Source of the DNA: an uncultured Actinomycetota bacterium
GTDB taxonomy: Bacteria > Actinomycetota > Actinomycetes > S36-B12 > UBA10799
Assembly (NCBI GenBank): GCA_963704075.1
Contig: CAVPGV010000009.1
Location: forward strand, 244,286 to 308,285
Direction: 5' to 3'
Length of the DNA: 64,000 nt
Both the position numbers and the translations under genes were made by a program. The notes under the pieces were generated by a model that was not told the DNA's origin, ran no database searches, and saw nothing but the letters and a program-made list of their open reading frames with translations. Below are positions 1 to 47,582 of the stretch, one piece after another (positions within the stretch are counted from its first letter, which is position 1; each line of letters starts with the position of its first letter).

Positions 1-690
1 CGGTGCCTTGACAGCGAATGCGAAGAAGAACCCGAGGAACAACATCCGCTGCGTGGTCGAGTCCATCCCGAGCTGGGTCAGCGCGCCGAAGTCGAACGTG
101 CCGGCCCCGAACTCGCGCTGGCTGACCACGTAGAGCCCGATCAGGCTGGCCAGCATGAACAGCCCACCGAACAGGCTCACGATCAGGAACTTCACCGCGG
201 CGTAGGACCGGCGGGCACCTCCGTAACGGCCGATCATGAAGTACATCGGGATCAGCATGACCTCGAAGAAGACGTAGAAGAGGAACACGTCGATGGCCGA
301 GAAGACCCCGATCATGCAGACTTCCAGCGCCAGCATGAGCGCGAAGTAGCCCTTCGTCGGGGCATCGCTGTGATCGGCCTCGTTCCATCCGGCCAGGATC
401 ACCACCGGCACCAGGATGGCGGCCATCGCGATGAGGACAAGGGCGATCCCGTCGACGCCCAGCGCGAACGAGATCCCGAACGACTCGATCCACGGTGTCG
501 AGGTCACGAACTGGAACGGATCGGTGCTCTGCGCGTCGAACTGCAACGCCATCGCGATGACGAGCACGAGCGTGGCGATGCTGAAGCCCAGGGCGACCTG
601 TTTGGCCAGTTCCGGGGAGTTCTTCGGCAGCAGCGCGACGACCACGGCACCGATCGCCGGGACCAGCAGCAGGATGAGCAACCAGTTCAT
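1..690 (-). CDS. nuoM: NADH-quinone oxidoreductase subunit M, N-terminal 230 codons (gene continues beyond window start)
   Basis: Manual minus-strand translation from ATG at 688-690 gives MNWLLILLLVPAIGAVVVALLPKNSPELAKQ... The frame stays open down to position 1 and the sequence is multi-TM and ND4-like. The start shares 1 nt with the nuoL stop. Its position after nuoL fits nuoA-N order. Confidence 0.85.
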   Translation of the reverse strand, partial: MNWLLILLLVPAIGAVVVALLPKNSPELAKQVALGFSIATLVLVIAMALQFDAQSTDPFQFVTSTPWIESFGISFALGVDGIALVLIAMAAILVPVVILAGWNEADHSDAPTKGYFALMLALEVCMIGVFSAIDVFLFYVFFEVMLIPMYFMIGRYGGARRSYAAVKFLIVSLFGGLFMLASLIGLYVVSQREFGAGTFDFGALTQLGMDSTTQRMLFLGFFFAFAVKAP

Positions 691-2616
691 CAGAGCCTCA
701 CCACCAGGAGCGCCACGAAGAGCAGGAAGGCACCGGCCAGCATCGACAGCGCGTACGACCGCGAGTAGCCGGTCTGCCACTTGCGCAACCGGTTGGACAG
801 GCCCGCGGTGGCCGATCCCATGGCCACGACCGCCCCGTCGATGCTGCGGTTGTCGAACCACACCAGGGCCCGGGTCAGGTACTGACCAGGACGCATGAAC
901 ACCGCCTCGTTGAACGCATCCCCGTACAGGTCCTTACGTGCCGCAACGGTCAGCGGCGACACCGACGTCGGGGCGGTCAGCGGAACCTCGCGGCGGTACT
1001 GCTGGTAGGCCAGCAGGGCACCGACGATGACCAGTGCGAGGGTCGACCCACTGATCACCGGTATGGGTATCGGTGGTTCGGGGTGTTCGAAGCCCACGAC
1101 CGGTTCCAGCCACTTCTCGATAGCGCCGTTCCAGGCCAGCAGGAAACCGCTGGCCAGCGACGCGATGCCCAGGATGATCAACGGGATGGTCATCACCGGC
1201 GGGGACTCGTGCGGATGCACGTCGTCGGTCCAGCGCTTCTTGCCCAGGAACGTCATGGTGAACAACCGGGTCATGTAGAAGGCGGTGATCCCGGCGCCGA
1301 TCATGGCGGCCAGACCCGCGGCCCAACTGTGCGCGAACGCCGGCTTCGATGATCTTGTCCTTCGAGTAGAAGCCGGAGAACGGTGGCACCCCCATGATCG
1401 CCAGCCAGCCGGCGGCGAACGTGACGTACGTGACCACCATGACGGTGCGGATGCCTCCGAACCGTCGCATGTTCTCCTGGTTGTTGAACGAGTGCATGAC
1501 CGAGCCGGCACCGAGGAACATATTGGCCTTGAAGAAGCCGTGGTTGACCAGGTGGAAGATGGCGAACACGTAGCCGATCGGCCCGAGCCCGGCGGCCAGC
1601 ACCATGTACCCGATCTGGGACATGGTGGAGCCTGCGAGAACCTTCTTGATCTCGTCCTTGGCCAAACCGATGATCGCCCCGAAGATCAGCGTGAACGCAC
1701 CGATGAAGATGACCACGGTCTGCGCGGTGGGTGCGCCGTCGAAGATCGGGTTGGACCGGGCGATGAGGTACACACCGGCGGTCACCATCGTGGCCGCGTG
1801 GATCAGCGCCGAGACCGGGGTCGGACCCTCCATGGCGTCCAGCAACCAGGACTGCAGCGGGAACTGCGCGGACTTCCCACACGCCGCGAGCAGCAGCAGC
1901 AGCCCGATCCAGGTCAGCGTCCCCTCGCTGGACTCCCCGGCCTGTGCGAAGACCTCCGGGAACGTGACCGTCCCGAACGACACGAAGATCGCCATGATCG
2001 CCACGGACAGCCCGAAGTCACCCACCCGGTTGACCACGAAGGCCTTCTTGGCCGCCACGGCAGCGCTCGGCTTGTACTGCCAGAAGCCGATCAGCAGGTA
2101 CGAGGCCAGGCCCACGCCCTCCCAGCCGACGTAGAGCAGCAGGTAGTTGTCGGCGAGCACCAGCAGCAGCATCGCCGCGACGAACAGGTTCAGGTAGGCG
2201 AAGAACAGCCGCCGCTTCGGGTCATCTTTCATGTACCCGATGGAGTAGATGTGGATCAGCGATCCGACACCGGTGATCAGCAGCACGAACGTCATCGACA
2301 GCTGGTCGATCTGCAGCCCCACGTTGGCGGTGAAACTGCCGACGAAGACCCAGTCCCACAGGTGCTGGATGATCCCGCGCTCCTCCGAGGGCCGGGCCAG
2401 CAGGCCCAGCCACATCATGACGGCGAGGATGAACGAGCCGATCGGCAGCGCGGTGGCCAGGTAGTGGCCCCACGAGTCGGTGCGGCGCCCGAAACTGAGC
2501 AGCACCGCGGCACCGATCAGCGGCAGGGCGATGAGCACCCAGATGTAGGTGAAGATGCCCTCCGGCGGGGCATACGTGATGGTCGGCGTCGCGGACGCCA
2601 GCAGGTCGGTGGTCAT
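690..2616 (-). pseudogene. nuoL: NADH-quinone oxidoreductase subunit L, reading frame broken once as assembled
   Basis: ORF piece 934..2616 carries a typical NuoL/ND5 N-terminal part ending ...[18 protein letters not shown] piece 690..1511 carries the continuation [27 protein letters not shown].... The junction is at about 1338-1344 (GCCGGCG). The span is 1927 nt, which is 3n+1. Confidence 0.85.
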
Positions 2617-4290: not shown

Positions 4291-5563
4291 TGTGCGGCTC
4301 CTGTTCGACGGCCGGGACATTGCTCGGTTCGAGCAACTCCTGGCCGGGCATCGGCGGGACCGGGTGACCGCCGGCGAAGGGGTCCACCGGCTCGGCGGAC
4401 GCCACCTCGGCGGCCTCCTGTGCTTCGGCACGGCGATCGCGGTGCACCTGCGCGACATACGACGAGATGATCAGCAACACCAGCGCGAATCCGAAGGCCA
4501 CCATCACCTGCAGATACGCCGACCCGTCGGGGCCGATGGCGTAGCGGGCGACCGACGCCACGATGATCCAGGCCAGGGCGGTCGGGATGAGCACCTTCCA
4601 GCCGAACCGCATGAACTGGTCGTAGCGCAACCGCGGCAGGGTGCCGCGCAGCCAGATGAACACGAAGATGAACGAGACCACCTTCATCAGGAACCAGAGC
4701 ATCGGCCACCAGCCCTCGTTGGCCCCGGACCAGATCGAGATCGGCCAGGGCGCCCGCCAGCCGCCGAGGAACAGCGTGGTGGCAAGCGCCGAGACAGTGA
4801 CCATGTTGATGTACTCGGCCAGGAAGAACATCGCGAACTTCAGCGACGAGTACTCGGTGTGGAAACCGCCCACCAGTTCACCCTCGGCTTCGGGCAGGTC
4901 GAAGGGCGCCCGGTTGACCTCTCCGACCATCGAGGTGGCGTAGATGATGAACGACGGAAGCAGGAGCAGCACGTACCAGAGTTTCGTCTGGGCGTTGACG
5001 ATCTCGGAGGTCGAGGCGCTGCCGGCGAAGAGGAAGACGGCCACGAACGACAGACCCATCGCGATCTCGTAGGAGATCATCTGCGCGGTGCTGCGCAGAC
5101 TGCCGAGCAGCGGATAGGTCGAGCCGGACGCCCAGCCGGCCAGCACGATGCCGTAGATGCCGATCGAGGCGATCGCCAGCACGTACAGGACGCTGACCGG
5201 GAAGTCCGTCAGTTGCAGCATCGTGGTCTGACCGAAGATCGAGACTTCCGGGCCGAACGGGATGACCGCGAAGGCCATGAACGCGGGCACCGCGGACAGG
5301 ATCGGCGCCAGGATGTACACGCCGAGTTCCACCTTGCGCGGGATGACTTCTTCCTTGAGGGCGAGTTTGAACCCGTCCATCAATGACTGCAGCAACCCGA
5401 ACGGGCCCACCCGGTTGGGGCCGACCCGGCTCTGCATCCGGGCGACCACGCGGCGCTCACCCCAGATGGTCAGCAGCACGATGACCACCAGCAGGGCGAA
5501 CAGGGCGACGACCTTGAGCAGGATCAGCCAGAACGGGTCACTGCCGAACCCGGCCACGTTCAT
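4283..5563 (-). CDS. nuoH: NADH-quinone oxidoreductase subunit H
   Basis: 426-aa multi-TM ND1-like ORF. Operon position fits, and it has a 4-nt overlap with the nuoG end. Confidence 0.9.
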
Positions 5564-7973
5564 GAAACCCTCCCGACGCTCACACGCACCGTATCGCCGC
5601 TGGCCACGCCGAGTGCGGACACCACGTTGGTTCCCGAATTCGTGGGCAACCAGACCACCCCGGACGGCATGTCGGTGACCAACGCCGGCAGCGTCAGGGA
5701 GCCGACGTCACCGGTGACGGTGACCGGGTCCCCGTCGGAGATCCCGAGGTCGCTGGCGTTGGCCGGACTCAGCCGCACTACTGGGGGTCGGGCGGTGGCG
5801 GCCATGTACGGCTCACCGGCCTGCATGGATCCGTCGTCGATGAGTTGGTGCCAGGTGGCCAGGACCGCCTCGCCGGGCGCCAGCCGCGACGGTTCGGCCG
5901 GCGGCTGCGCCGGAGCGGCGGGACGGCTCTGCTGCCTGCGCTCCCAGGGCGATCGGCTCGGCCTGCGGCTCCAGCAGCATCTCGTCGCTGATCGCGGACA
6001 GCACAGCCGCGTCAGTCAGGATGAGCGACTCGCGGAACACCTGTGGGAACGGTCGGCGTCTGCCTTCCCAATCGGTGTAGGAGCCGGCCTTCTCGGTGAC
6101 CGCCGCCACCGGGAACACCACGTCCGCGGCGCGGGTGGCAGCGTTGTGGTGCGTGGCCAGCGCCACGACACACGGCACCTGCTCGAAGCCGGTGACCAGT
6201 GCGGCACCGTCGGGCACGTCCATAGGGTCGAATCCGGCCACCAGCAGCGCACGGTAGGGCGGCTCCGGCTCCTCGGCCACCTCGGCTGCGGGGTCCTCCT
6301 GAATGTCCTCTGCGACATCCTCTTCGGCGACCGGCACCAGTGCCTCCCGCGGCTGTGCGGCGGCGACGAGGCGCTCGGTGACCCCGGCGAACCCGACGCC
6401 CGCGTCACCGTTCCACAGGGCGGGTGCGGCACCGGGCAGCAGCCCTGCGTCCAGCGCACCGCGCTCACCGGCGCGTCGCGGCACCCACGCCAGGCGGGCA
6501 CCGGTCTGCGCAGCCGTGGCGGCCAGCCAGCTGAGCAGGCCCTGCGAGGTGGCGGCACGCTCACCGACCATGAGCACCGCACCGGGCTGACGCAACGCCT
6601 GCATCAACGTCTTCGGACCCGGACATGGCTGCGATCTCCTGACCGGGACCGGCGGCCAGGACGGTGGCGGCGAGTTTGGACAATCCCGGGCTCGCCCAGG
6701 GTGCGACCGCGAAGACCTTCGTCGATCCCTTGGTCACCGCCTTGCGCAGGCGCAGGAAGACGATCGGCGACTCCTCCTCCGGCTCGAAAGCAACCAGCAC
6801 CACGGCCGGCGCCACATCGAGGTCGCTGTAGGTGGGACCCTGCGTACCGGCGATCGTGGAGGTCAGGAACGCGGCCTCCTCGTCGCTGCTGGGGCGGGCC
6901 CGGAAGTCGACGTCGTCGGTCTTGAGCACGCTGCGGGCGAACGTCGAGTAGGCCTGCGCGTCCTCTGCCGTCAGCCGGCCGCCCACCAGGACGGCGGCAC
7001 TGCCCGCGGCGGCGGCCAGCGCGTCGGCGGCGATCCCCAAGGCCTCGGGCCACGAGGCGGTGACCAGTCGACCGGCCTCGTCACGGACCAGCGGATGGGT
7101 GATGCGGTCCTCGGTCAGATAGGTGAAGGCGAACCGGCCCTTGTCGCAGTTCCACTCCTCGTTGACCTGCGGGTCGTCACCGGCCAGCCGTCGCTGCACC
7201 TCGCCGCGCCGCACGTCGGTGCGCATCGCGCAGCCGCTGGCGCAGTGCTCGCAGACCGTGGGAACCGACACCAGGTCGAACGGCCGCGCCCGGAACCGGT
7301 AGCGCGCGTTGGTCAGCGCCCCGACCGGGCAGATCTGCACGGTGTTGCCGGAGAAGTACGAGTCGAACGGGGTGTCCTGGCTGATCCCGACCTGCTGCTG
7401 CGCACCCCGCTCCAGCAGGTCGATGAAGGCGTCACCGGCGATCTCGTCGGCGAACCGGGTGCAGCGGGCACACGAAACGCACCGTTCCCGGTCGAGCAGG
7501 ATCTGCGCGCTGACGTTGATCGGCTTCGGGAAGGTGCGTTTCGGCCCCTCGAACCGGGTCTCCGACCGGCCGGCGGTCATCGCCTGGTTCTGCAGCGGAC
7601 ACTCTCCGCCCTTGTCGCAGATCGGGCAGTCCAGCGGGTGGTTGAGCAGAAGGAATTCCATCACGCCGCGCTGAGCGTCGTCGGCGACCTTCGAGGTGCG
7701 CTGCGTCCGCACCACCATGTTGTCGGCCACCGGGATCGCACAGGCGGGCTGAGGTTTCGGCTGCCCCTCGATCTCGATCAGGCACATGCGGCAGGCGGCG
7801 ACCGGATCCAGCAGCGGGTGGTCGCAGAAGCGTGGGATCTCGATACCCAGCTGCTCGGCCGCGCGGATGATCAGCGTGCCCTTCTCCGCGGTCATCGAGA
7901 CCCCGTCGATGGAGAAGGCCACGTGGCCCTCCGGCACCGTCATCTCGTTGCTGTCCGGGTCTGTGACGGTCAT
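5560..7973 (-). pseudogene. nuoG: NADH-quinone oxidoreductase subunit G, two frame breaks as assembled
   Basis: Three collinear pieces: 6561..7973, 5813..6607 and 5560..5826. The N-terminus has Fe-S Cys motifs ([32 protein letters not shown]). The start at 7973 forms an ATGA overlap with the nuoF stop. Frame changes lie near 6605-6625 and 5880-5935. The span is 2414 nt, which is 3n+2. Confidence 0.85.
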
Positions 7974-18846: not shown

Positions 18847-19765
18847 CTACGAACGTGCCAGCACGTCGGCGGCCGCTGCGATCCGGCGCTGCCAGTAGCC
18901 CAGATCCTCACCCGTCTCGACCAGGTCCGGGGTCGGGTAGCCCACCCACCCCACCTCGCCGGCAACCGGCAGTAGCGGCTCGGTGGTGTCGCGCACGTAC
19001 AACGAACCGGTGCCCAGACCGCATGCGAGCGGCGGCTCCGGCAGACAGCATGCCGCGGCGACTCCGGCGGCCAGTCCGAGGGACGTGTCCAGGGCACTGG
19101 AGATCACCACGGGAAGGCCCACCCGTCTGGCCACCTGCAGGGTCCGCCGGACCCCGCCGAGCGGCGCGACCTTCAGCACCGCCACATCGGCAGCAAACGC
19201 GACGTCGTCGAAACGGCGGTCGATGCGGATCAGTTCGTCTGCAGCCAGCGGAACATCGATGCGTGCCCGCAGCGCCACCATGTCCTCGAAACTGCGAACC
19301 GGCTGCTCGGCGTACTCGAGGTCGAACGACGACAGCTCCTCGAGCTCCTCGACCGCCTGCTCCAGCGACCATGCACCATTGACGTCCACTCTCAGCGCAG
19401 CATCCGGCATCGCGTCACGGACCGCGGCGACCCGGTCGCGCCCAAGCACGATCGCCGACCTTGATCTTGATCGTCGTGCACCCCGAAGCCAGGGCCATCC
19501 CAGCGGCGACCACGGGTTCCACGGCCGGGACGATCGCGTTGACCGCCACCCGGCGCCGAACCGGTTGTGGCCACAAACCGTCGGCCTGCTCGATCGCACT
19601 GGCGAGCCATCGCGCGTCGGCGTCGACGCCATAGTCGGAGAACGGCGCGAACTCCCCCCACCCGTGCGACCCCGAGATCAGACATCCCCTGCGCTCGGTC
19701 AGGCCCCGGAACTCGGTGGCCAGGTCCAGCCGGAACGGCAACAATCGGCGGTCGCCGAGGTTCAC
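18847..19765 (-). pseudogene. menC: o-Succinylbenzoate synthase, one frame break as assembled
   Basis: The N-terminal part ([15 protein letters not shown]...TTIKIKVGD) is in the frame of ORF 19415..20782. The C-terminal part (...LGRDRVAAVRDAMPDAALRVDVNGAW...) is in ORF 18847..19632. The junction is at about 19447-19460. The GTG start forms a GTGA overlap with the menB stop. The span is 919 nt, which is 3n+1. Confidence 0.85.
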
Positions 19766-20682: not shown

Positions 20683-20748
20683 GCGTCAAGGCTAGATGAA
20701 AGCGAGCAAACCGGCGCCCGGGACGGGGTACGGCGCACAATAGGTCGG

Positions 20749-21720
20749 GTGATCGAGTTGCCGGGGAACCTCCCGCCCGCACAGATGGCGCGCATGGTGT
20801 ATCGCCTGCTCGACGAACGGACGCAGTTCGCAGCTCCCGGCGCCCCGACCAGCGATGACGCCGACATCGTGCTGCGCACGTCCGGCAGCATCGACACCGC
20901 CAAGTCGGTGGCCCACAAGTACGCGGCGGTCGACTGGGCGGTGGCCACCTCTCGCAGTGTGTTGTCGGCGCATGACTGGCGGTGGTTGCTGCTGCTGTCG
21001 CCGGTCTCGGCTGGGGGCTTCATGACCCTTGCGCGGTCCGATCGCGAACCGCTGATCTGGCCCGGTCTCGGCGGGCGTTTCGACGCTCGCGCGGTGACCG
21101 ACTGGTACTCCGGCGGCGCGGATGCGACGGCCCTGGTCAGCACGCAGGTGGCCAGGATGCTCGATCTCCCGCAAGGCGTCGAGATGTTGCAGCGGATGAA
21201 GGTGGTGCTGGTGGGTGGCGGACCGTTCCCGCCCGCACTGCGGGACAGGTGCCGCGACGTCGGAGTCCGGGCCGTCGCGACGTACGGCTCGACGGAGACC
21301 TTGGGCGGCTGCGTGTACGACGGAGTGCCCTGGCCCGGCATCGAGGTGGAGATCCGCGAGGACCAGATCCATCTGGATGGGCCCAACCTGTCGGCGTCGT
21401 ACGTGCCGGGACCGTTGATTCCCCGGCCATGGCCCACCGGGGATCTGGGTCGGTGGACCGACGGCCGGCTCGAGGTCGTGGGCCGGGTCGACGACCTCGT
21501 TCCGGTCAAGGGCGTGAACCGGCATCTGCGGGAGTTCGAACGGGAGGCCCTGCGCCGCCCCGGGGTCCTCGAAGCGGTGGCCGTGGCGGTTCCCGACGAG
21601 GTCGACGGATACCGTGTGGTGGTCTTCGTCGAGGATGCCGAACAGCGGCTGCCCCGACTGGAAACCGGCAAGCCGGACCGCCGAGAGCTACTCAGGAGGG
21701 CACGTGGCCAGCGTCGCTGA
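20749..21720 (+). CDS. menE: o-Succinylbenzoate-CoA ligase, unusually short form
   Basis: GTG at 20749 (VIELPGN...) followed by 323 codons. Adenylate-forming core motifs are present (YGSTETLGG, TGDLGRW...GRVDDLV, GKPDRREL). The first AMP-binding motif is degenerate (TSGSIDTAK). The gene sits only 66 nt from the divergent menB start. Confidence 0.75.
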   Translation: MIELPGNLPPAQMARMVYRLLDERTQFAAPGAPTSDDADIVLRTSGSIDTAKSVAHKYAAVDWAVATSRSVLSAHDWRWLLLLSPVSAGGFMTLARSDREPLIWPGLGGRFDARAVTDWYSGGADATALVSTQVARMLDLPQGVEMLQRMKVVLVGGGPFPPALRDRCRDVGVRAVATYGSTETLGGCVYDGVPWPGIEVEIREDQIHLDGPNLSASYVPGPLIPRPWPTGDLGRWTDGRLEVVGRVDDLVPVKGVNRHLREFEREALRRPGVLEAVAVAVPDEVDGYRVVVFVEDAEQRLPRLETGKPDRRELLRRARGQRR

Positions 21721-24469: not shown

Positions 24470-25978
24470 TCAGCTCTCCCTCTTCGACAGCATCGTGGCG
24501 ATCTCGCGGACATCATCGTGCACGCGCCCGCCGCCCGAACGGCTCAGACCCGCCACTTCGGCCACTGTATCCCCCTGCGGCGACAGCCGGATCCAAACCC
24601 GGCGCCGGTGCAGCAGCAGTGACATGCTGACCCCGACGATCACCAACGCCGACGCGATCAGCGCCAGCCAGCGGCCCGGGTCGTGGGCCAGGGAAAGGTT
24701 CGCGAAGTCCCGGAATCCGACGAACTCGACGGTCGTGCCGTCGGGCAGTTCCCAACTCTGGCCCGGCCGCAGCGCCTGGTTGCCGATCAGATCGAGGTCC
24801 GTGGTGTCCAGCTGGTACACGCTGCCGCCGATCTTCACGTCACCGGTGAACGCCCCGAGGAACAGTTGCGGGTCCTGGGCGGCCGGAAAGGTGGAAATGG
24901 GCCCTCGCACGGGGTCGATCGAGGCGGTCGGAAGGAACAGGCCCTGCAGGGCGAAACCGGGCTCGACATCCGGAACCTTGACCACCCCCGAGGAGGTCAG
25001 GTTGCCGTCGCGGGGCAGGAAGACCACCGCGTCATCGAAGATGACGGTCCCGTCCGGCCGGGTGACCTTGATCTCGGGCGCATACCCGTGGCCGGTGAGG
25101 AACACTTTGACACCGGGCAGCACCAGCGGTGAGTTGACCTGGAACTCCTGCTCGGTGACAGGATCCCCTGGCCGCTCGCTGACCAGGGCCCGCGCCTCGA
25201 ACTGCCGTGGCGCTCCGGCCTGTTGGCCCGACTCCTGGAAGGTGGCGGCGAAGTCCTGGAGGATGACCGAGAACGGCGCGATCTGATCGGGATTGACGAG
25301 CCGACCCTTGCGGAACGAGTCGAACTGCGTCAGAGAGCCCGTGAAGCCCTTGCCTTCCACCACGATGACCCTGGCCGACCATCCGAACAGTCCACCGACG
25401 CCGACGGCCAGCAGCAGGAAGATGAAGCAGAGGTGGAACAGCAGGTTGCCCACCTCATGCAGGTAGCCCTTCTCGGCGCTGACCGCGTCGCCGTCGCGAC
25501 GCACCCGCCACTTGCTGGCACGCAGGTAGGCTTCCGCATCGTCGAGCAGTGCCTGATCCGCGGCGACGTCGTGCACGGCGGTGTACGCGGGCATGCGCGA
25601 CAAGCGCGAGGGCGCCGGCGGCGGGGGATTGCGATAGGTCCGTATGAAGTCAGCGGTCCGGGGGATGATGCATCCGACCAAGGAGATGCACAGCAGCAGG
25701 TAGATCGCCGCGAACCACGCCGAGGCGAAGACGTCGAACATGCCGAGCCGGTCCAGCCACGGCCCGAGGGTCGGATTTGCCTGCAAGTAGTCGTTGACAC
25801 GCGCCGCGTCGGTGCCCCGCTGCGGGAACACGGAACCGGGAATACTGGCCAGCGCGAGCAACAGCAGCAGGATCAGCGCCGTGCGCATGCTGGTGAGGGT
25901 CCGCCAGCCCCAGCGCAACCACCCCACCGCGCCGAGCTGCGGACCGCTGCTGCGCGGACGTTCCACCGTCGTGGTCAT
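24470..25978 (-). CDS. resB: Cytochrome c biogenesis protein ResB/Ccs1
   Basis: ATG at 25978 (MTTTVERPRSSGPQLGAVGWLRWGWRTLTSMRTALILL...) followed by 502 codons. It forms an ATGA overlap with the ccdA stop. The track ORF 24470..26725 fuses it to ccdA read-through. Confidence 0.85.
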   Translation of the reverse strand: MTTTVERPRSSGPQLGAVGWLRWGWRTLTSMRTALILLLLLALASIPGSVFPQRGTDAARVNDYLQANPTLGPWLDRLGMFDVFASAWFAAIYLLLCISLVGCIIPRTADFIRTYRNPPPPAPSRLSRMPAYTAVHDVAADQALLDDAEAYLRASKWRVRRDGDAVSAEKGYLHEVGNLLFHLCFIFLLLAVGVGGLFGWSARVIVVEGKGFTGSLTQFDSFRKGRLVNPDQIAPFSVILQDFAATFQESGQQAGAPRQFEARALVSERPGDPVTEQEFQVNSPLVLPGVKVFLTGHGYAPEIKVTRPDGTVIFDDAVVFLPRDGNLTSSGVVKVPDVEPGFALQGLFLPTASIDPVRGPISTFPAAQDPQLFLGAFTGDVKIGGSVYQLDTTDLDLIGNQALRPGQSWELPDGTTVEFVGFRDFANLSLAHDPGRWLALIASALVIVGVSMSLLLHRRRVWIRLSPQGDTVAEVAGLSRSGGGRVHDDVREIATMLSKRES

Positions 25979-26725
25979 AGGCCCACCTGGAACTCGTTGG
26001 CCCAGACCCGCATCCAGACGGACACGTCGTTCCAGAAGCCCGTCACCAACAGCACTCCGATGAGGATCAACGTGGCGCCGCCGAAACGAAGCACCCACAG
26101 GGAATGCTGGCGCAGCCATTTCACCGCCCCGGCCATCCGGCGGAAGGCCAGCGCGATGATCAGGAAGGGAACGCCCAGCCCGATGCAGTACGCAAGGGAC
26201 AGCAGCGCGCCCGCGCAGCGCAGAGCCCTCCGTGAAGACCAGCGCTTGCACCGCCGCCAGGGTCGGGCCGATGCACGGCGTCCAGCCGAGGCCGAACAGC
26301 ACACCCAGCACCGGAGCGGTCCAGATCCCCAGGTTCGGGGACACGTGCCAGCGCACCTCGCGCTGTAGCCACGGGAAGGCCCCCATGAAGCCGATCCCCA
26401 TCACGATGATCACGACGCCGAGGACGCGCTGTATCGGCTCCTGGTACTCCAGCAGCACTCCCCCGGCGTAGCCGAGCAGAGCACCGTAGGAGATGAACAC
26501 CAGCGAGAAGCCCGCGATGAACAAGCCCACGCCGGTGAGAATGCGGCTGTGTCGGGGGGTCACGGGCTCGGTGAGTTCGGCGCCGGTCACACCGGTCACG
26601 ACCCCCACGTAGCCCGGAACCAGCGGCAGGACGCACGGCGAGGCGAACGAGACGAAGCCCGCGAGCAGCGCCAGCGGGATCGCCAGCAGCAGCGACCCGC
26701 CGGTGACGGTCTCGGCAACGCTCAC
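25975..26725 (-). pseudogene. ccdA: Cytochrome c-type biogenesis protein CcdA (DsbD-like), one frame break as assembled
   Basis: The N-terminal part has FASPCVLPLVPGY and GWTPCIGPTL motifs in the frame of ORF 24470..26725. The C-terminal part (ALLSLAYCIGLGVPFLI...) is in ORF 25975..26304. The junction is at about 26205-26215. The span is 751 nt, which is 3n+1. Confidence 0.85.
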
Positions 26726-30736: not shown

Positions 30737-32896
30737 CTACAGGTACTGCTCGCCGCGGTCGGCCCGCGCCACCAGCGAGGCGGGGACAGCGAAGCGTTCA
30801 CCGTACTTCTCGGCGAACTCGCGTGCCCTGGCCACGAATTCGGCCAATCCGTAACCGTTGATGTACTGCAGCACACCCCCGGTCCACGGCGGGAACCCGA
30901 TCCCGAAGATGGAGCCGATGTTCGCATCCGGAACGTTGCGCAGGACGCCCTCGTCCAGGCAGCGCACCGAGTCCAGTGCCTCGACGAACAACATCCGCTC
31001 CTGCAACTCGGTGAGGTCGATCGACGCGGGATCGATGTCCGATCCCCAGGTCTCGAGCAGGCCCGGCCACAAACCGACCCGCTTGCCGTCCTCGTAGTCG
31101 TAGAACCCGGCACCGGCCGCGCGGCCGCCGCGGTCGAACTCCACGACCATCTTGTCGATGACCGGGTAGGAGGGATGCTCGGGGAAGTCCCAGCCCTCGG
31201 CAGCTGCGGCCTCCCGGGAGGCCTCCCGGATCCGACGGCCCAGCGTCAGGCTGACCTCGTCGAACAGCGCCAGCGGTCCGGTCGGGTAGCCGGCCTGCAG
31301 TGCTGCTTGCTCGATGCTGGCCGCCGGGATCCCCTCGGCCAGCATCGCCGCGGCCTCGCCCATGAACGTGCCGATGACGCGACTGGTGAAGAACCCGCGG
31401 CTGTCGTTGACGACGATCGGGGTCTTCTTGATCTGCAGGGCGACGTCCACGGCTTGCGCGATCGCCGCATCCGAGGTCTGCTCCCCGACGACGATCTCCA
31501 GCAGCGGCATCTTGTCCACCGGCGAGAAGAAGTGCATACCGATGAAGTCGGCCGGCCGGGTCACCGCGTCAGCGAGCCCGGTGACGGGCAGGGTCGAGGT
31601 GTTGGAGGCCAGCAGCGCGTCCCAGGCCAGGAACGGCTCGATCTCCGCGTAGACCTTCTTCTTCAGCGCCGGGTCCTCGAACACCGCCTCGATCAGCAGG
31701 TCGGCACCCTTGGCGTCGGCTGGGTTGTCGGTGGAGTGATCCGGGCCAGCACCTCATCGGCGGCCTCCTGGGTCATCCTGCCCCGGCTCACGGCCTTGTC
31801 CAGCAGCTTCTCGCTGTAGGCCTTGCCCTTCTGCGCCGACTCCAGCGTGACATCCTTGAGTACGACCTCCATGCCGGAACGCGCCGACACGTAGGCGATG
31901 CCGGCGCCCATCATGCCCGCTCCGAGGACCACGACCTTCTTGGCCGTGTACTTCTCGTGGCCCTTCGGGCCGGCTGCTGCCCTTCATGATCCCCTGCAGG
32001 TCGAAGAAGAACGCCTTGATCATGTTCTTGCTGACCTGGCCGGTGGCGAGACTGACGAAGTACTGCGTCTCGATGCGCAGTGCGTTGTCGACGTCCACCT
32101 GGGAACCCTCGACCGCCGCGGCCATGATGGCCTCCGGGGCAGGCATGGGTGCGCCCTTGATCTGCTTGCGCAGGTTCGCCGGGAACGCCGGCAGCATCGC
32201 GGCGAACTTGGGATTCGACGGGGTGCCACCGGGGATCTTGTAGCCCTTGACGTCCCACGGCTGTACCGCATCCGGGTTGGCCCTGATCCAGGCCTTCGCC
32301 GCGGCGATCAACTCCGCCGGGTCGCTGACGAGTTCGTCGACCAGTCCCACCTCGAGTGCGGCCGCGGGCTTGCGGCGCTGTCCCTGCAGGAGGACCTCCA
32401 TGAGCGCCTTCTGCAGCCCGAACATGCGCACGGTGCGGGCCACGCCGCCGCCGCCGGGCAACAAGCCCAGACTCACCTCGGGCAGCCCGATCTCACTGCC
32501 CTTGACGTCCAGCGCGATCCGGTGGTGACAGGCCAGGGCGATCTCCAGGCCACCGCCGAGCGCAGCGCCGTTGATGGCTGCCACGACGGGCTTGCCCAGC
32601 GTCTCGAGTTGCCGGCTCAGGCCCTTGAACGTCTGCAGTTGCTCGGTCAGCGCCTGCGCGTCCGCGGGCGTGGCCTGGCTCAGCAACGTCAGGTCGCCAC
32701 CGGCGAAGAAGGTCTTCTTCCCCGAGGTGATGACCACACCGGCGATGTCGTCCTTCTCCGCGAGCAGGCGCTGCATCGTTTCGGCGAAACTCGACTGGAA
32801 CGTCGCGTTCATCGTGTTGGCGCCCTGGTCCGGGTCATCCATCGTCAGCGTGACGATCCCGTCGGCGTCCGTGTCCCAAGCGATCATGTTCGTCAT
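30737..32896 (-). pseudogene. fadB: Fatty-acid oxidation multifunctional protein (enoyl-CoA hydratase / 3-hydroxyacyl-CoA dehydrogenase), two frame breaks as assembled
   Basis: Three collinear pieces make up the gene. 31964..32896 is the crotonase domain, starting MTNMIAWDTDADGIVTLTMDDP. About 31733-31963 carries the NAD-binding motif VLGAGMMGAGIAYV. 30737..31732 is the HCDH part (...FEDPALKKKVYAEIEP...HFFSPV...). The junctions are near 31958-31968 and 31728-31738. Confidence 0.85.
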
Positions 32897-32900: not shown

Positions 32901-34116
32901 TCAGACCCTTTCGACGATCGTGGCCAGACCCATGCCGCCACCGATGCACAACGTGACCAATCCGTACCGGCCGCCGGAACGTTCCAGTTCGTCGACGACG
33001 GTCCCGAGGATCATCGCGCCGGTGGCTCCCAGCGGGTGTCCCATGGAGATCGCCCCCCCGTTGAGGTTGACCTTCTCCATGGGCAGGTCGAAGTCCTTCA
33101 CCCACTTGAGAACGACCGCGGCGAACGCCTCGTTGAGTTCCCAGACGTCGATGTCGTCGACGGTCAGGCCGGCGGTCTTCAAAACCTTGCGGGTGGCCGG
33201 CGTGGGGCCGGTGAGCATGATCGTCGGATCCGCGCCGGACACCGCCGTCGCGACGATCCGGGCGCGCGGCGCCATGCCGAAGTCCTTGCCGACCTGCTCG
33301 TTGCCGACGACCACCAGAGCGGCGCCGTCGACGATGCCCGAGGAGTTGCCCGGGGTGTGCACGTGGTCGATCGACTCGACCCAGTGGAACTTCTGCAGCG
33401 CAACCGCGTCGAAACCACCCATCTCACCGATGCCGGCGAACGACGGCCTGAGCTTTGCCAGCGACTCCATCGTCGTGTCGGGACGCATGTGCTCGTCGTG
33501 GTCGAGCAGGGTCACACCGTTGCGGTCCTTCACGGGCACCACGGACTTGGCGAAGTTGCCGGCACTCCACGCGGCCGCCGACCGCTGCTGGGACTGCACG
33601 GCGTAGGCGTCGACGTCCTCGCGCGTGAAACCCTCCGTGGTGGCGATGAGGTCGGCACTGATGCCCTGCGGCACGAAGTAGGTGTCGTAGGCGGTCTCGG
33701 GATCCATGGCCCACGCGCCGCCGTCGGAGCCCATGGGCACGCGGCTCATGCACTCGACGCCGCCGGCGATGATCAACTGGTCCCATCCGGAGCGGACCTT
33801 CTGCGCGGCGATGTTGACGGCTTCGAGCGCGGAGGCGCAGAACCGGTTGACCTGGGTACCCGCGACGGTGTCGGGGAGACCGGCGAAGATCGCGGCGGTC
33901 TTGGCGATGTCGGCACCCTGGTCGCCCACCGGGGTGACGCAGCCGAGCACGAGATCATCGATCGCGTTCGGGTCCATGTTCGGATGCCGCGTGCGCAGTT
34001 CGTCGATGAGTCCGGTCACCAGGGTCACGGGCTTGACGCCGTGCAGCGAACCGTTGGCCTTTGCCCCGGCCGCGGGGGGTGCGGATCGCTTCGTAGATGT
34101 ACGCTTCGTTGGCCAT
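32901..34116 (-). pseudogene. fadA: Acetyl-CoA C-acyltransferase (thiolase), frame break in first ~20 codons as assembled
   Basis: ATG at 34116 after GAAGGAG gives the canonical thiolase N-terminus [16 protein letters not shown]. This frame then fails. The rest ([11 protein letters not shown]...[11 protein letters not shown]...[12 protein letters not shown]) is in ORF 32901..34121. The junction is at about 34055-34085. The span is 1216 nt, which is 3n+1. Confidence 0.85.
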
Positions 34117-34146: not shown

Positions 34147-35350
34147 CTAAGCGGGGGCTACGTCATCCACATCAGCCGGTTGTGGATGCGCGCCCGAACG
34201 GCTGCCGATCGCGGTGGCGATCTGCGGGAACAACATCACGGACACTACGCCGGCGCCCACCAGCGTCGCCGCGTCCCCGTTCGTCATGAGCCCTGCCTCC
34301 TGGCCCACCTGGGACAGTGCGACGAGCAGTGGCAGGGCCGTTGACGTGTAGAAGACCATCTGCCACCGCTGGTTGACGGTGAGCACTTCCGGTACATGTA
34401 CAGTGCCGGCAGGCCGCGGATCGCCAGCATGAGGGCCGCGAAGACAATCGGCTTCCAGGGGGCGGCCAGGATCGACGCGATGTCGAGGGTCATCCCGGAG
34501 TTGATGAAGAAGATGGGGATGAACAGACCCCAACTGACGGCCTCCAATTTGCGCTCGAGGCTGTCGGTGTCGCCGGGCGCCCACCGCCGCAGCACAACGC
34601 CGGCCAGGAAACCGCCGAGCACGATGTCGAGGCCGAAGTCCTCGGCGAGCATCAGCAGGAACACCAGCAGGATCACCGTCCAGCGAAGGGTGATCTGTCC
34701 GGTGGCGTGCTCCTGCAGACTCAGCCGGACGGCGACACCGCGCCGCTGCGCCCGTATCAGCACTTGCAGCACCATGAACACCGCGATCCCCATCGCGACC
34801 AACGCGATGATCCCGCCGATGGCCCCCGTGGCGCTGAGGAGCAGGGCCATGGCGACGATCGGCAGGAATTCGCCGACCGCACCGGCGGCGAACACGAAAG
34901 GACCCAGCGCGGTCTTCAGCGTCCCGTTGTCGCGCAGGATCGGCAGCAGGGTCCCCAGCGCCGTGGTGGTCAGCGCGATCGTCACCTCCACACTTCCGTC
35001 GACCACCTAGAACTGCTGGAACACGAGCACCGCAGCCAAGCGCCATCACCGCGGTGAGCAGCCAGGATCGGATGGCGAGTTCTGCCCGGCAACTGACTGA
35101 ACAGGCGCGTCTCGAGTTCGTAGCCGGCCATGAGGAAAAGGAACCCGAGCCCGAGTTGCGACAGCGCCTCGATCTGATCCGGGCTGGCCCAGTTGAGTGC
35201 TTCCGGGCCGATCAGGATCCCCCCGAGGATCAGGAAGACGACCTGCGGCAGCGACGGACCCGGCAGCAGTGCTGTGATCATCGGGGCGATCCCGGCGACG
35301 ACCGCGACCGCGAACAGGGACTCCAGCAGAGAGGGCATGGCGTCAAGCAT
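34147..35350 (-). pseudogene. Cation:proton antiporter (CPA2/Kef-type) with multiple lesions
   Basis: Fragments 34982..35350, 34284..35006 and the tail of 34147..35049 are collinear pieces of one Na+/H+-exchanger-family TM protein. Frame changes lie near 35085, 35035 and 34390. There is also an apparent in-frame TAG (plus-strand CTA at 35007-35009) in ...AAVLVFQQF*VVDGSVEVTIA. Confidence 0.75.
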
Positions 35351-41645: not shown

Positions 41646-42051
41646 TCAGAATCCGCGCGTGAGATCAAGCAGGCGGTCGCGCAGCGCAGTCGCCACCGCC
41701 GGCAGCTCACCGGCCGCGAGGTTGAGCAGACCACGATCACGCACTCGCACGGCGCCTGTGGCATTGCCCCGCATGGCGTGGGTCAATGCCACAGCCAGTT
41801 GCGCCATGCCCTTCCACGCGGTGCGCTCCGGTTCCGAGGACACCTTCCAAACCGCTTCCAAGACCTCGTGCGCTTGGAACGGCAGCCCTTCATCCAGCAG
41901 ATGACCGGCATGAGCGACCACCGCCGCCGGGCTGGTGTCGATGTCCTCGGGCAACGGGTGCCACACCCGGGCGCCCGGGCGGCAACGGCCTGCCCAACTC
42001 GTCCCGCGGCCGGGCATTGCGGGGGCGTCCGGACGTGTCGCGGTCACGCAT
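41646..42051 (-). pseudogene. DUF309 domain protein, one frame break as assembled
   Basis: The N-terminal MRDRDTSGRPRNARPRDELGRPLPPGRPGV is in the frame of ORF 41890..42120. The C-terminal HPLPEDID...LLDEGLPFQAHEVLEAVWK...WKGMAQLAVALTHAMRGN is in ORF 41646..42287. The junction is at about 41955-41965. The span is 406 nt, which is 3n+1. Confidence 0.7.
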
Positions 42052-43269: not shown

Positions 43270-43657
43270 TCAGTCGGTCCCCGTGGCGGTCAACGGTGCC
43301 GCGGCCGAGGCCAGTTCACCGGCGAAGGCCGCCACGGATCCATCCAACCGGTCCAGTTGGCGCTCGCCGAGCATCAGTACCAGATCAGTGGCCGTCCGGG
43401 CCAGGACCACCGGGCTGCCGGTGGTGGAAACCATGGCCGCGACGTCCGCCGGCATCTCGTTGAGGTGGTAGCAGGCGGAACGGCACGCCGAGCGAATCAA
43501 CGAAAGCGTCCCACTGCTTCTTGCGGCGCACCGGGGAGTGGGTGATGTCGCACAGGGAGCAGTGGGTGCGTCCGAGGAGGTGCCCCAGCACGTACTTGGC
43601 CTCGCCGACGAGCCCGCCGTCCGCGTGATAGACCCCGATGTACTCCGTGATCGCCAT
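43270..43657 (-). pseudogene. Conserved-looking hypothetical protein with HCxxC motif, one frame break as assembled
   Basis: ATG at 43657 gives MAITEYIGVYHADGGLVGEAKYVLGHLLGRTHCSLCDITH...GVPFRL. It continues in another frame as HLNEMPADVAAMVSTTGSPVVLART.... The junction is at about 43465-43480. The span is 388 nt, which is 3n+1. Confidence 0.55.
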
Positions 43658-44072: not shown

Positions 44073-44089
44073 TCGCCGCCACGATCACC

Positions 44090-44982
44090 TCAGCCGGGAT
44101 CGCGGACGTCGATGTGCACGGTGCGTCCCACCGCGGGCACGCTGCGGGTGTCGGTCACGTACGACACGGGCTGCCCGGCCACGGTGCCCGACACCAGGAA
44201 TCGTCCGTCGTCGAAGGTCCGGCCGGTGACGCGCAGTTCCCACCTGCCCCCTCGCCTCTGCTGCAAACGCTCCGGCGGATATGCGACGTCGTCGAGGACC
44301 GAGAGGCCGACCAGCCGGGCCACGTAGTCGTCGACGGGCGCGTTCCACAACTCGTCGGCTGTGCCGACCTGGACCAGTTTTCCCTGCTTCAACACGGCCA
44401 CCCGGTCGGCCATCGTGAACGCCTCATGCCGGTCGTGCGTCACCGCCAGGACGGTCATCTCGCGATCGCGCAGAAGCCGTTGGACGTCCAGTACGAGTTC
44501 CGCCTTCAGCACCGCGTCCAGCGCGCCGAACGGCTCGTCGAGCAGCACCACCGCCGGCGCTGGGGCCATCGCCCGGGCCAGGGCGACACGTTGTGCCTGG
44601 CCACCACTGAGCGTGTCCACCGCCCTGTCCTGGAAGCCGGCCAGGCCGACCAGATCCAGCGTCTCGTCGACCCGACGGGCATCGGCGGGCCGTCACTCCG
44701 AAGCCCGACGTTCTCCGCGACGTTGAGGTGCGGGAAGAGCAGGTCGTCCTGGAACATCATTCCGATCGCCCGGCGGTGTGTGGGGACACCCTCCAAGGGG
44801 CGGCCCGCCACCTCGATGCGACCGGTGTAGTCGACCAGCCCCGCCACCGCCCGCAGGAGCGTGGACTTGCCACCGCCACTGGGCCCCAGGATGCACACGA
44901 TCTCGCCCTGCCCCACCTCCAGGTCGACGCAGTACAGGACCGGCTGGTCGTAGGACACCGAAACGTTCTGAAGGTGCAGCAT
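44090..44982 (-). pseudogene. ABC transporter ATP-binding protein (ThiQ/FbpC-like), one frame break as assembled
   Basis: The N-terminal part has Walker A (GPSGGGKST) in the frame of ORF 44506..46068. The C-terminal part has the signature LSGGQAQRV and Walker B (VVLLDEP) in ORF 44090..44620. The junction is at about 44688-44700. The span is 893 nt, which is 3n+2. Confidence 0.8.
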
Positions 44983-46571
44983 CAGAAACCTACCGCCCGG
45001 TTGAGGCGCACCCGGTCGATCGCCACCACGACCGCGACGGTTACCAGCATCAGCAGGGCGCCCGCCGCGTACGCCGCGGCGACCGTCACCGCACCCGGCC
45101 GGGCCAGCAGGCGGGAGATGGCCACCGGCAGGGTCGGGTCTGCCGGACTGGCGAGGAAGATGGTCGCCCCGAACTCCCCGATGGTCACCGCGAACGCGAA
45201 CCCGGTCGCCACCAGCACCGCCGGCAGGACCAGTGGTACGGCCACCGATCGCAGGGCGTTGACCGGCGACCGCCCCAGGACCGTCGCCACGTGAAGGTAC
45301 CTCAGGTCGAAACCCTGCAGTGCCGGCGTCAACACCCGCACGACGAACGGCATGGCCACCAGCGACTGCGCGAGGATGATCAGCAGGCCGGTGTTGCGCA
45401 GGTCGATCGGGGGCCGACCGAATGCGAGCAGCATGCCGAGGCCGACGGTGACTGCGGAGGTGCCCAAGGGAAGCAGAAGCATCGCGTCGACCGAACGCAG
45501 CCACCTGCCGCGGCCGCTGAACGCCAGGCCGAACGCCGCCATCCCGCCTATCGTCACCGCGATCAGGGTGGCTGCGGCCGCGGTGCGCAGGGAAGCGACT
45601 ACGGCCGACCACGGATCGACCGAGTTGGTGCTCGTCCCCTGCGCGAACAAGGTCTGCCACCCCAGCGTGGTCCACTGCCCGTCGATCGTCAGGGATCGGA
45701 CCAGCACGATCAGCAGCGGTGCCAACACCGCCACGCAGGTGAGGGACACGACGACCACCACCGCGATGCGCTGCCGCCACCCGCGCGGGGGTCGCGCGAC
45801 ATCCACGACCGGTCCGGTGACCACGGACGCGGTGTTGCCGACCACCGCGAGCATGGCGACGACCGCGAGTAACTGCAGCAGTGACAGCGCGGCGGCGGCA
45901 GGCAGGTCGAGCAGGTAGGCGGTCTGCCGATAGATCTCCACTTCGAGCGTGCGCAACTGTCCCGCGCCGAGGACCTGCACGACGCCGAACGACGTGAAGC
46001 TGAACAGGAAGACGATCAACGCCGATGAGCGCAGCCCGGGCCGCAGCAGCGGCCAGGTCACCCGCCACCAGGCCTGCCAGCGGGAGGCCCCCAGCACCTG
46101 TGCGGCCTGCTCCAGACGCGGGTCGATCGTCGACAGCGAACTACCCACCACTCTGATCACGACGGCGATGTTGAGGAAGACATGTGCGATGACCAGCCCC
46201 CACAACGAACCCGAGAGGTCCACGGCCAGCACCCCGCCGGGACCGATCATCGCCAGGAAGGCGGCGGCGACCACCACCGTCGGCATCACGAACGGAACCA
46301 GCACCAGCGCCCGCACCAGTGCCCGGCCGGGGAACCTGAAGCGTGCCAGGACGACGGCCGCGGGCATCGCCACGATCATCGTCGCGGCCGTCGACAGGGC
46401 GGCCTGGGCGACGGTGAAACCGAGGATGCGCCAGGTGCGACCCGCGCCCACCACCGCGAGCATGGCCTCTGGACCGTCTTGTGCACCGACCCGGATGACA
46501 GCGGCGACCGGGATCACGAAGAGCAGGACGAGGAACAGCAGGGGGACGGCGAGCACGACCCGCAGGATCAC
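44982..46571 (-). CDS. ABC transporter permease with two fused permease domains (ThiP-like)
   Basis: About 529 codons from GTG at 46571, which forms a GTGA overlap with the binding-protein stop. The track ORF start at 46601 is the alternative. There are 12 or so TM segments, and the size matches duplicated thiamine/Fe(III)-type permeases. Confidence 0.8.
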   Translation of the reverse strand: MILRVVLAVPLLFLVLLFVIPVAAVIRVGAQDGPEAMLAVVGAGRTWRILGFTVAQAALSTAATMIVAMPAAVVLARFRFPGRALVRALVLVPFVMPTVVVAAAFLAMIGPGGVLAVDLSGSLWGLVIAHVFLNIAVVIRVVGSSLSTIDPRLEQAAQVLGASRWQAWWRVTWPLLRPGLRSSALIVFLFSFTSFGVVQVLGAGQLRTLEVEIYRQTAYLLDLPAAAALSLLQLLAVVAMLAVVGNTASVVTGPVVDVARPPRGWRQRIAVVVVVSLTCVAVLAPLLIVLVRSLTIDGQWTTLGWQTLFAQGTSTNSVDPWSAVVASLRTAAAATLIAVTIGGMAAFGLAFSGRGRWLRSVDAMLLLPLGTSAVTVGLGMLLAFGRPPIDLRNTGLLIILAQSLVAMPFVVRVLTPALQGFDLRYLHVATVLGRSPVNALRSVAVPLVLPAVLVATGFAFAVTIGEFGATIFLASPADPTLPVAISRLLARPGAVTVAAAYAAGALLMLVTVAVVVAIDRVRLNRAVGF

Positions 46572-47582
46572 TCCATGATTGCGGACCACTGATCGATCCA
46601 TTCGTCACGGCCGGCCGCGATCTCGTCGGGCTGCATCACCACGGGATCCGCAGGTTGTGGCGCGTACTTCCGGAAGGCCGGCGGAACCTTCGCCCCTTCG
46701 ATCACCGGGTAGACGAACATCTGCCCGCCGATGTCGTCCTGGAAGGCCTTCGACAACATGAAGTCCACGAACGTCTTCGCCCCCGACTCGTTGCGCGCGC
46801 CGGCCAGGACCCCGGCGTATTCCACCTGCCTGGAAGCACTGGGCGTCGACATTGGCGGTGGGCGGCGGGGCCGCGGGATCCTCGGAGAACATCACCTCGG
46901 CAGCCGGACTCGTGGAGTAGGACACGACGATCGGACGGTCACCTTCGCCGGATCCACCGGAGAACTGCCGGTAGTAGGCGTTGTCCCACCCATCGACCAC
47001 TTTGACGCCGTTGGCCTTGAGGTCGCGCCAGTACTGCTGCCAGTCCTGCTGGGTCGCGACGGTGCTGAGCAGAAAGGCGAGCCCGGGGGAGGACGTGGCC
47101 GGGTTCTGCACCACCGCGAGGTCCCGGTACTGGGAATCGATCAGGTCCGCGGGGCTGTCAGGGGCCGGCCTGTTGGCGAAGTAGGCGGTGTCGTAGTTCA
47201 GGCACACCGCACCGGTGTCGATCGGCGTGACACCGGGTGCGTCCTGCGCGAGAGCGGCCGGCGCGCCGGAGGCCTGATAGTCGACGAAGACGCCTGCTTC
47301 CTGGGCCCGGCTCAGGAAGGTGTTGTCGACCCCGAACAGCACATCACCTTGTGGGGCGCCTGCCGACAGGATCGCCGAGTTGACGACCTGGCCGGCGTCA
47401 CCGTTCTGCACGATCTTGACAGTGAGGCCACTGTCCCGGGTGAACTCGTCGAGCACGTCCTGCGACACGGCGAAGGAGTCGTGGGTCACCACCACCACCT
47501 CGGAGACCGGCTCGGATTGGGGCTCCGCCTGGCTCGAACAGGCCGCGAGAGCGATGGTCAGGGATACGATGAGAAGTCGCAC
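46568..47582 (-). pseudogene. ABC transporter substrate-binding lipoprotein (thiamine/TbpA-like), one frame break as assembled
   Basis: GTG at 47582 after GGAGGAAAC. The lipobox is LAACSS. The body is in ORF 46605..47582 up to ...ANVDAQCF, then continues RQVEYAGVLAGARNESGAKTFVDFML... in ORF 46568..46852. The junction is at about 46829-46840. The span is 1015 nt, which is 3n+1. Confidence 0.8.

Follow-up and report, generated by a model that had tools for sequence, protein, structure and literature searches.

Does the 64,000-nucleotide stretch of an uncultured actinobacterium analysed here, referred to below as the window, record a wholesale loss of respiratory genes, or do its many interrupted reading frames reflect the way in which the sequence was assembled? 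All thirteen genes named in a preliminary description are frame-broken in the deposited sequence, and that description preferred consensus errors to a simultaneous loss of respiration. The comparison with related assemblies agrees: the breaks are very probably assembly errors at single-base differences between co-occurring strains, rather than biological gene loss, a reading favoured by lesions private to one assembly, intact relatives, normal selection, and the presence of both alleles at polymorphic columns.

When the window was parsed with a Viterbi model of codon usage, frame switches fell at 1338, 5918, 6606, 19456, 21847, 21986, 23887, 26213, 31735, 31973, about 34060, 43469, 44671, and 46827, and exact lesion positions were set by base-level comparison with the closest relative (Table 1). 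Between positions 690 and 47582, 13 of about 46 genes are hit, while a single gene is affected between 47.6 and 64 kb. Across the broken genes there are 19 frameshifting indels, 15 insertions and four deletions, each exactly 1 nt long (19/19), and CPA2 has a single in-frame TAG besides. Pfam profile coordinates divide cleanly between the two frames of the broken genes, as seen with Proton_antipo_M and NADH5_C in nuoL, Molybdopterin (1-166 and 237-332) followed by Molydop_binding in nuoG, Enolase_like_N and MR_MLE_C in menC, Cytochrom_C_asm (2-103 in one frame, 106-212 in the other) in ccsA, and 3HCDH_N (1-71 and 70-179) in fadB. The 339,941-bp MAG contig (NCBI/ENA) from which the window derives has truncated products of broken genes on public record, including a 560-aa N-terminal NuoL product, which in the window is accompanied by a C-terminal piece, a 470-aa NuoG product, and a 325-aa substrate-binding protein. 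The suggestion that the frameshifts were planted after deposition or by handling was rejected, because these truncated products stand in the public protein collection. Exact matches to MenB, the PhoE-like phosphatase, DUF998, the ABC permease, and ALDH of the window did not occur in a gene-position index, and a cluster index assigns these proteins to a 339,941-bp contig.

Table 1. Positions of the lesions in the window, by gene or spacer
Feature	Coordinates	Strand	Lesion	Compared with
nuoL	690..2616	-	+1 at 1338	CALOBO010000006.1
nuoG	5560..7973	-	+1 at 5933; +1 at 6608	
menC	18847..19765	-	+1 at 19445, within 19445-19449	
menB-menE intergenic spacer	20723	.	extra A; no gene broken	
menA	21704..22591	+	-1 at 21844, within 21841-21845; +1 at 21991, within 21989-21991	
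ccsA (resC)	23548..24458	-	-1 at 23896	
ccdA	25975..26725	-	+1 at 26209, within 26209-26213	
fadB	30737..32896	-	-1 at 31734; +1 at 31969, within 31966-31971	L002, L003, L004
fadA	32901..34116	-	+1 at 34059, within 34058-34062	
CPA2 Na+/H+ exchanger gene	34147..35350	-	+1 at 35082; +1 at 35041; TAG 35007-35009; -1 at 34389	
DUF309 gene	41646..42051	-	+1 at 41960	
HCxxC hypothetical gene	43270..43657	-	+1 at 43473	
ABC transporter ATPase gene	44090..44982	-	+1 at 44692; +1 at 44707	
ABC substrate-binding protein gene	46568..47582	-	+1 at 46833	
Secreted repeat protein gene (not among the 13)	54621..55889	+	11-nt deletion at 55600; 1-nt deletion at 55658	

In each of the 13 genes, frame breaks lie within about 35 nt of where the preliminary description had placed them. 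Its seven single-break genes with spans of 3n+1 (nuoL, menC, ccdA, fadA, the DUF309 gene, the HCxxC gene, and the binding protein gene) each carry a +1 insertion, the pairs of breaks that it reported in nuoG, menA, and fadB were located against relatives, and its "several lesions" in CPA2 consist of three indels and the in-frame TAG. The ABC ATPase gene, credited with one break, has two insertions. Single-base insertion, which had been proposed as the general form of the error, accounts for most lesions (15:4), the remaining four of the 19 being deletions, and the supposed G/C-rich context of the breaks was not recovered, as they share neither homopolymers nor a G/C-rich motif. A homopolymer run longer than three bases occurs at only one of the 19 indels, the deletion at 23896 (a run of four), and the insertions mostly lie between non-identical flanking bases. 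Homopolymer slippage was rejected because it does not fit the indel contexts, and no common sequence motif or methylation site was visible in these contexts. Among 58 genes compared with the closest relative, the sole net 3n length change comes from a compensated -11/-1 pair (net -12) in the secreted repeat protein gene. In this gene the 11-nt deletion lies inside a (GCAGCC)n stretch; the ORF remains open, with roughly 19 codons read in a frame other than that of the closest relative.

The closest relative, GCA_942491545.1 (contig CALOBO010000006.1, hereafter CALOBO), matches the entire window at 98.7-99.7% identity and is intact at 19/19 of the window's indel sites. The relatives, which carry the NCBI labels Micrococcales or Candidatus Nanopelagicales, are MAGs and single metagenome contigs, each counted only where it covers a site; JADKAV (L002), JAWKJL and JAWKJN (L084, L085, and L091), four JGI contigs (L086-L089), and ERZ25039603 (L093) likewise show none of the breaks at the window lesion sites that they cover. 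None of the 19 window indels is common to any relative, and all are private to one assembly. Alignment to the closest relative, which the preliminary description had proposed as a check, yields 1-nt differences at all 19 indels; 12 of the 13 genes are intact in CALOBO, the exception being fadB, which has different, private lesions of its own. A literature search on the accession of this relative returned no result.

Repaired proteins are full length and nearly identical to the intact orthologues. CALOBO encodes an intact NuoL of 641 aa and an intact NuoG of 803 aa, to which the repaired NuoG corresponds at 800/803 residues, with three differences. MenC is intact at 305 aa in CALOBO, JAWKJL, JAWKJN, and the four JGI contigs, and CcdA is intact at 249 aa in the relatives. 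In menA, 147 nt are out of frame between the missing and the extra base; the relatives have an intact MenA of 295 aa, and the repaired protein differs from that of JAWKJN at four residues. The repaired FadB is 92.6% identical over its full length to the JADKAV protein with zero stops, and the repaired ABC ATPase equals that of CALOBO at 296/296 residues.

According to the first rival explanation, the genes are genuine, very recent pseudogenes, and point indels have just inactivated complex I, menaquinone synthesis, cytochrome c maturation, beta-oxidation, and a transporter in a strain of this actinobacterium at the start of reductive evolution. The frameshifts are indeed present in the deposited record, four lesions, one of them a stop codon, fall in CPA2, and the heavily damaged fadB of CALOBO could mean that some of these genes are dispensable in the species. 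Against this stands the absence of any lesion shared with the other related assemblies examined, even one about 99% identical, together with the signal of selection. After repair, pN/pS relative to CALOBO is 0.082 in the broken genes and 0.104 in the intact genes, so that the repaired genes appear to be under purifying selection equal to that on their intact neighbours, and once the extra bases are removed the broken genes contain no stop codons apart from the single TAG in CPA2. Large deletions and IS insertions are both absent. Spontaneous 1-nt indels concentrate at homopolymers in mutation-accumulation studies, a spectrum that these indels, lying away from homopolymers, do not follow. Mycobacterium leprae exemplifies genuine mass pseudogenisation in a reductive genome, and the window resembles it in that many conserved metabolic genes, respiratory ones included, are interrupted yet recognisable; genuine cases of this type, however, show lineage-shared lesions, nonsense mutations, large deletions, rearrangements, and relaxed selection, none of which is seen in the window. 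Genuine pseudogenisation is thus very unlikely.

A narrower form of this explanation concerns the most heavily hit genes. The four lesions of CPA2 and the at least seven of CALOBO fadB exceed what a uniform error rate predicts, and one or both could therefore in principle be real pseudogenes. It is very improbable that at least some lesions are genuine, those of CPA2 being the most plausible candidates, or, more broadly, that point indels have only just deprived this strain of complex I, menaquinone synthesis, and cytochrome c maturation; if true, it would mean that the first moments of respiratory decay had been caught in a free-living wastewater actinobacterium.

The bases at the breaks themselves point to a mechanism. 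Coding insertions covered by at least two relatives were tested for the presence of both alleles of a SNP found among those relatives, leaving out the insertions at nuoL 1338, nuoG 5933, and nuoG 6608, which have one relative each. At 12/12 testable insertions, both alleles stand side by side in the window, with per-site null rates of 0.016-0.39 and a joint probability of about 3e-10, the alternative alleles being taken from relatives of other samples and not from phased reads of the source sample. The menC junction reads AAGC, as in JAWKJL, and then ACG, as in CALOBO. In fadA, CALOBO has GCTTTG, JADKAV GCCTTG, and the window GCCTTTG, while at the inserted column of the DUF309 gene CALOBO has T, ERZ25039603 has G, and the window has TG. 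The HCxxC gene reads CA in the window, against C in CALOBO and A in both ERZ25039603 and JAWKJN, and this is the site with the null rate of 0.016. The first ABC ATPase site is T or G in relatives and GT in the window, and the second is C or G in relatives and CG in the window; a metagenome-wide pattern scan across both of these sites, with either allele permitted, found no match. All four deletions fall on a polymorphic column (null rates 0.23-0.37 each), such as the column dropped from ccsA, where CALOBO carries C and the remaining relatives carry G. In the TAG of CPA2, T and G match the CALOBO codon TCG and A matches the JAWKJN codon GAA; judged from these codons, the lone stop codon is a chimera of two haplotypes, which counts against gene loss. 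Nothing about a genuine insertion would make it match the alternative SNP allele at every tested site.

The same observations weigh on the explanation that invokes random long-read indel errors, arising from low coverage or poor polishing with no strain mixture. Residual consensus errors of long reads are typically single-base indels (PMC8103633, PMC12007338), and four insertions have no demonstrable two-allele pattern: the three with one relative, and the extra A at 20723, which is absent from 7/7 relatives and for which the pattern was tested and not shown. Random errors, however, would not hit a polymorphic column and add its alternative allele at 12/12 testable sites, nor would they cluster where SNPs are dense. 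The indels lie in SNP-dense neighbourhoods (permutation test, P ~3e-4), pS is 3.8% in the broken genes against 1.0% in the intact genes, and the low-diversity stretch from 47.6 to 64 kb is nearly lesion-free, a sparing that is likewise unexpected under random error. Residual nanopore errors are typically homopolymer deletions, whereas the lesions of the window are non-homopolymer insertions. Random error alone is accordingly most improbable as the source of the breaks. Programmed ribosomal frameshifting or transcriptional slippage that restores the frames in expression, for which only the clean continuation on either side of each break speaks, has a negligible probability, since the breaks are not conserved in orthologues, which are single ORFs needing no frameshift in any relative, since slippery heptamers and homopolymer tracts were sought at the sites and none found, and since 13 unrelated genes are affected by both +1 and -1 shifts.

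Assembly error at strain-polymorphic positions would proceed as follows. The window belongs to a MAG whose consensus would have been built on reads from several closely related strains, and at a strain SNP the consensus step would pick no single allele. Emission of both alleles in tandem would give a +1 insertion, omission of the polymorphic column would give a -1 deletion, and mixing of the alleles of adjacent SNPs within one codon would give the TAG. Thirteen otherwise healthy genes would resemble pseudogenes because each such event breaks the frame of its gene. The source assembly is presumably long-read based, and the fault probably arose when a pile-up of mixed strains was turned into a consensus or polished. 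The consensus error posited in the preliminary description is supported, with collapsed strain haplotypes at SNP sites, instead of a G/C-rich context, as the likely cause.

Comparable errors have been described elsewhere. In collapsed long-read assemblies of a diploid trypanosome genome, nearby allelic variants lead to INDEL errors and ORF truncation (PMC8445201). As in the window, 1-nt indels truncate ORFs of otherwise intact genes where nearby variants shift haplotype homology, and the trypanosome lesions vanish once haplotypes are separated. The haplotypes here, in contrast, would be co-occurring metagenome strains rather than diploid alleles, and the tandem-allele signature is deduced from relatives in other samples rather than from phased reads. 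Nanopore MAGs also contain coverage-dependent frameshift pseudogenes (PMC8103633). The window shares with such long-read MAG and isolate pseudogenes (PMC8103633, PMC12007338) assembly-specific single-base indels that inflate pseudogene counts and are detectable against close references; those errors, however, are usually homopolymer-associated, often deletions, and coverage-dependent, while the window is insertion-biased, non-homopolymeric, and SNP-tied. Other assemblies of the clade bear private frameshifts of the same kind: several of the CALOBO fadB lesions are two-allele insertions, ALDH is truncated to 421 aa in ERZ25039603 contig_73055, and an 825,786-bp ENA contig encodes a 378-aa NuoG and a 102-aa PhoE.

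Both alleles in tandem at a strain-polymorphic site provide a simple reference-based test that separates artefacts from real frameshifts without reads. Gene-fragmenting consensus errors occur both in this public MAG and in three or more related ones on public record, where they would raise pseudogene counts and make pathways look less complete, and the respiratory chain of the organism is almost certainly normal.

The window, with a G+C content of 68%, contains a syntenic actinobacterial block comprising the nuoA-N operon, men genes, and the cytochrome c maturation genes ccsA/resB/ccdA/resA, together with hemL, fadBA, a CPA2 exchanger, an ABC importer, and hem genes. A Viterbi parse based on codon usage, with the long ORFs of the window itself as its training set, changes frame within genes at almost exactly the points where the preliminary description, made from the sequence alone, had placed breaks in about 13 conserved genes. 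Pfam profile coordinates run on from one frame into the next, revealing single genes cut into two or three pieces, and the observation of frame breaks is therefore real. Truncated products are on record for the source contig in NCBI and ENA, beside other proteins of the window, including NuoL (560 aa), NuoG (470 aa), the ABC binding protein (325 aa), MenC in pieces of 116 and 200 aa, and a FadB piece of 315 aa; the frameshifts thus belong to the deposited assembly.

The closest relative, contig CALOBO010000006.1 of MAG GCA_942491545.1 (CALOBO), was reached by an exact look-up of the window NuoF, while three more look-ups provided the remainder of the contig. It is a separate assembly, not the window itself, and is collinear with the entire window at 98.7-99.7% identity. 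Additional relatives include ERZ25039603 contig_73055 (97% identity), the Candidatus Nanopelagicales MAGs JAWKJL and JAWKJN (94-96%), the Micrococcales MAG JADKAV010000001.1 (nucleotide identity ~90%), and four JGI metagenome contigs. Divergence from CALOBO is strongly mosaic, ranging from 0 to 3.4% per kb, and looks like recombination tracts among strains. Mismatches number 0-3 per kb across 9-17 kb and 44-64 kb, and 20-38 per kb at 19-22, 31-32, 34 and 41 kb, where the frameshifts concentrate.

A gene-by-gene comparison of 58 genes with the closest intact reference, in which fadB was handled apart against three outgroups, identified 15 insertions and four deletions private to the window, each exactly 1 nt. 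The sole further coding length change among the 58 genes is a pair of deletions, of 11 and 1 nt, in the gene at 54621-55889. None of the window lesions is present in CALOBO or any other relative covering the site, and gene calls in the relatives give one full-length ORF per orthologue, carrying the expected domains. Alignment to the closest relative, which the preliminary description had proposed as a check, demonstrated that 1-nt changes separate the broken from the intact frames.

Window-private lesions (+1, inserted base; -1, deleted base), with alleles at insertion sites and Pfam matches in successive frames
Gene	Lesion	Alleles in relatives	Window	Pfam matches
nuoL	+1 at 1338			Proton_antipo_M, then NADH5_C
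nuoG	+1 at 5933; +1 at 6608			Molybdopterin 1-166, then 237-332, then Molydop_binding
menC	+1 at 19445	AAGC (JAWKJL-like), ACG (CALOBO-like)	AAGC joined to ACG, one-base overlap	Enolase_like_N, then MR_MLE_C
menA	-1 at 21844; +1 at 21991
ccsA	-1 at 23896			Cytochrom_C_asm 2-103, then 106-212 in next frame
ccdA	+1 at 26209
fadB	-1 at 31734; +1 at 31969			3HCDH_N 1-71, then 70-179 in next frame
fadA	+1 at 34059
CPA2	-1 at 34389; +1 at 35041; +1 at 35082; in-frame TAG 35007-35009	35082: T or C	TC
DUF309 gene	+1 at 41960	T or G	TG
HCxxC gene	+1 at 43473	C (CALOBO), A (ERZ25039603, JAWKJN)	CA
ABC ATPase	+1 at 44692; +1 at 44707	44692: T or G; 44707: C or G	GT; CG
ABC binding protein	+1 at 46833

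Neither homopolymers nor a shared motif were found at the indel sites, but their surroundings are rich in SNPs. Within 30 nt of 14 indel sites there are 28 mismatches to CALOBO against 6.7 expected (P ~3e-4), and pS reaches 3.8% in broken genes versus 1.0% in intact ones. Alleles read from local multiple alignments of the relatives revealed that, at the insertions, both alleles of a SNP segregating among relatives stand in tandem in the window. In a programmed two-allele test, in which simulated random insertions were given equal alignment freedom, all 12 testable coding insertions were positive (per-site null 0.016-0.39; joint probability ~3e-10); those at 1338, 5933 and 6608 lay outside the test, CALOBO being the sole relative there. 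All four deletions take out a column polymorphic among relatives, and the CPA2 stop TAG combines the T and G of the CALOBO codon TCG with the A of the JAWKJN codon GAA.

The lesions are over-dispersed, with four in CPA2 and almost none in 47.6-64 kb, where divergence from CALOBO is 0.25-0.35%, a distribution that fits dependence on local strain diversity. It would be compatible, too, with CPA2 being a real pseudogene. After repair, in which extra bases were removed and missing ones padded, pN/pS against CALOBO is 0.082 for broken and 0.104 for intact genes, and differences in the repaired genes are mostly synonymous. The repaired ABC ATPase equals its orthologue at 296/296 residues and NuoG at 800/803, while repaired FadB, free of stop codons, aligns end to end with the JADKAV protein at 92.6% identity. 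The broken genes show no sign of decay, and real, very recent respiratory decay, against which both pN/pS and the repaired proteins speak, is highly improbable.

Consensus error, the reading preferred in the preliminary description, is supported by the private lesions, the normal pN/pS and the two-allele insertions, and is favoured over real mutation because the latter has no reason to copy a neighbouring strain's alternative allele. A consensus drawn from a pile-up of two haplotypes does have such a reason, and this adds a specific mechanism to the earlier reading: SNPs between strains are collapsed into indels that hold both alleles in tandem. The same failure is on record for a heterozygous eukaryote, in whose collapsed long-read assemblies allelic variants lying close together shift the homology and so bring in INDEL errors, with truncation of ORFs (PMC8445201). 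Long-read MAGs are known to contain frameshift pseudogenes (PMC8103633; PMC12007338), and the type of error points to a long-read assembly as the source.

Other differences from CALOBO were also observed. The gene at 54621-55889 (+), encoding a secreted PQ-repeat protein, lacks 11 nt in a (GCAGCC)n stretch at 55600 and 1 nt at 55658, 58 nt downstream; the net loss of 12 nt leaves the ORF open, with ~19 codons in another frame. This pair is likely one more fault of the consensus, or else an error on top of a true difference in repeat length. Intergenic 1-nt indels at 13179, 18760-18783, 20723, 55985, 56022 and 56183 may reflect true variation or errors of the ordinary kind; at 20723, seven of seven relatives lack the extra A, which shows no two-allele pattern, and the indel at 56183 is a difference in homopolymer length (C7/C6). 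Upstream of ccsA, BLAST segments against CALOBO overlap at intergenic 23285-23547, which indicates that the two genomes differ by a short tandem duplication or in the copy number of a unit of ~100-140 nt, or by a small rearrangement. In two JGI contigs from a related strain, a Transposase_mut gene (L086 98-1348; L089 61-1311) takes the place of ccsA and its neighbours, the synteny break adjoining the DUF4229 gene.

Private frameshifts occur, elsewhere, in each long-contig assembly of the clade. CALOBO, intact wherever the window is broken, carries at least seven private frameshifting lesions in fadB (853-3130 of its sequence, L083), several again two-allele insertions, and the gene is called as pieces of 137, 340 and 42 aa; this seems to be either an artefact as in the window or real decay of fadB there. 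In ERZ25039603 contig_73055 (L093 3006-4271), ALDH is truncated to 421 aa, against 555 aa in the window and CALOBO. On an 825,786-bp ENA contig, known through proteins P0153 and P0223 only, NuoG measures 378 rather than 803 aa and the PhoE-like protein 102 rather than 213 aa. No private frameshifts were found in the regions compared of the JAWKJL and JAWKJN MAGs and the JGI contigs. The frame breaks in the window are not biological, and their counterparts across the clade suggest a quality problem that recurs among the long-contig MAGs of the lineage.
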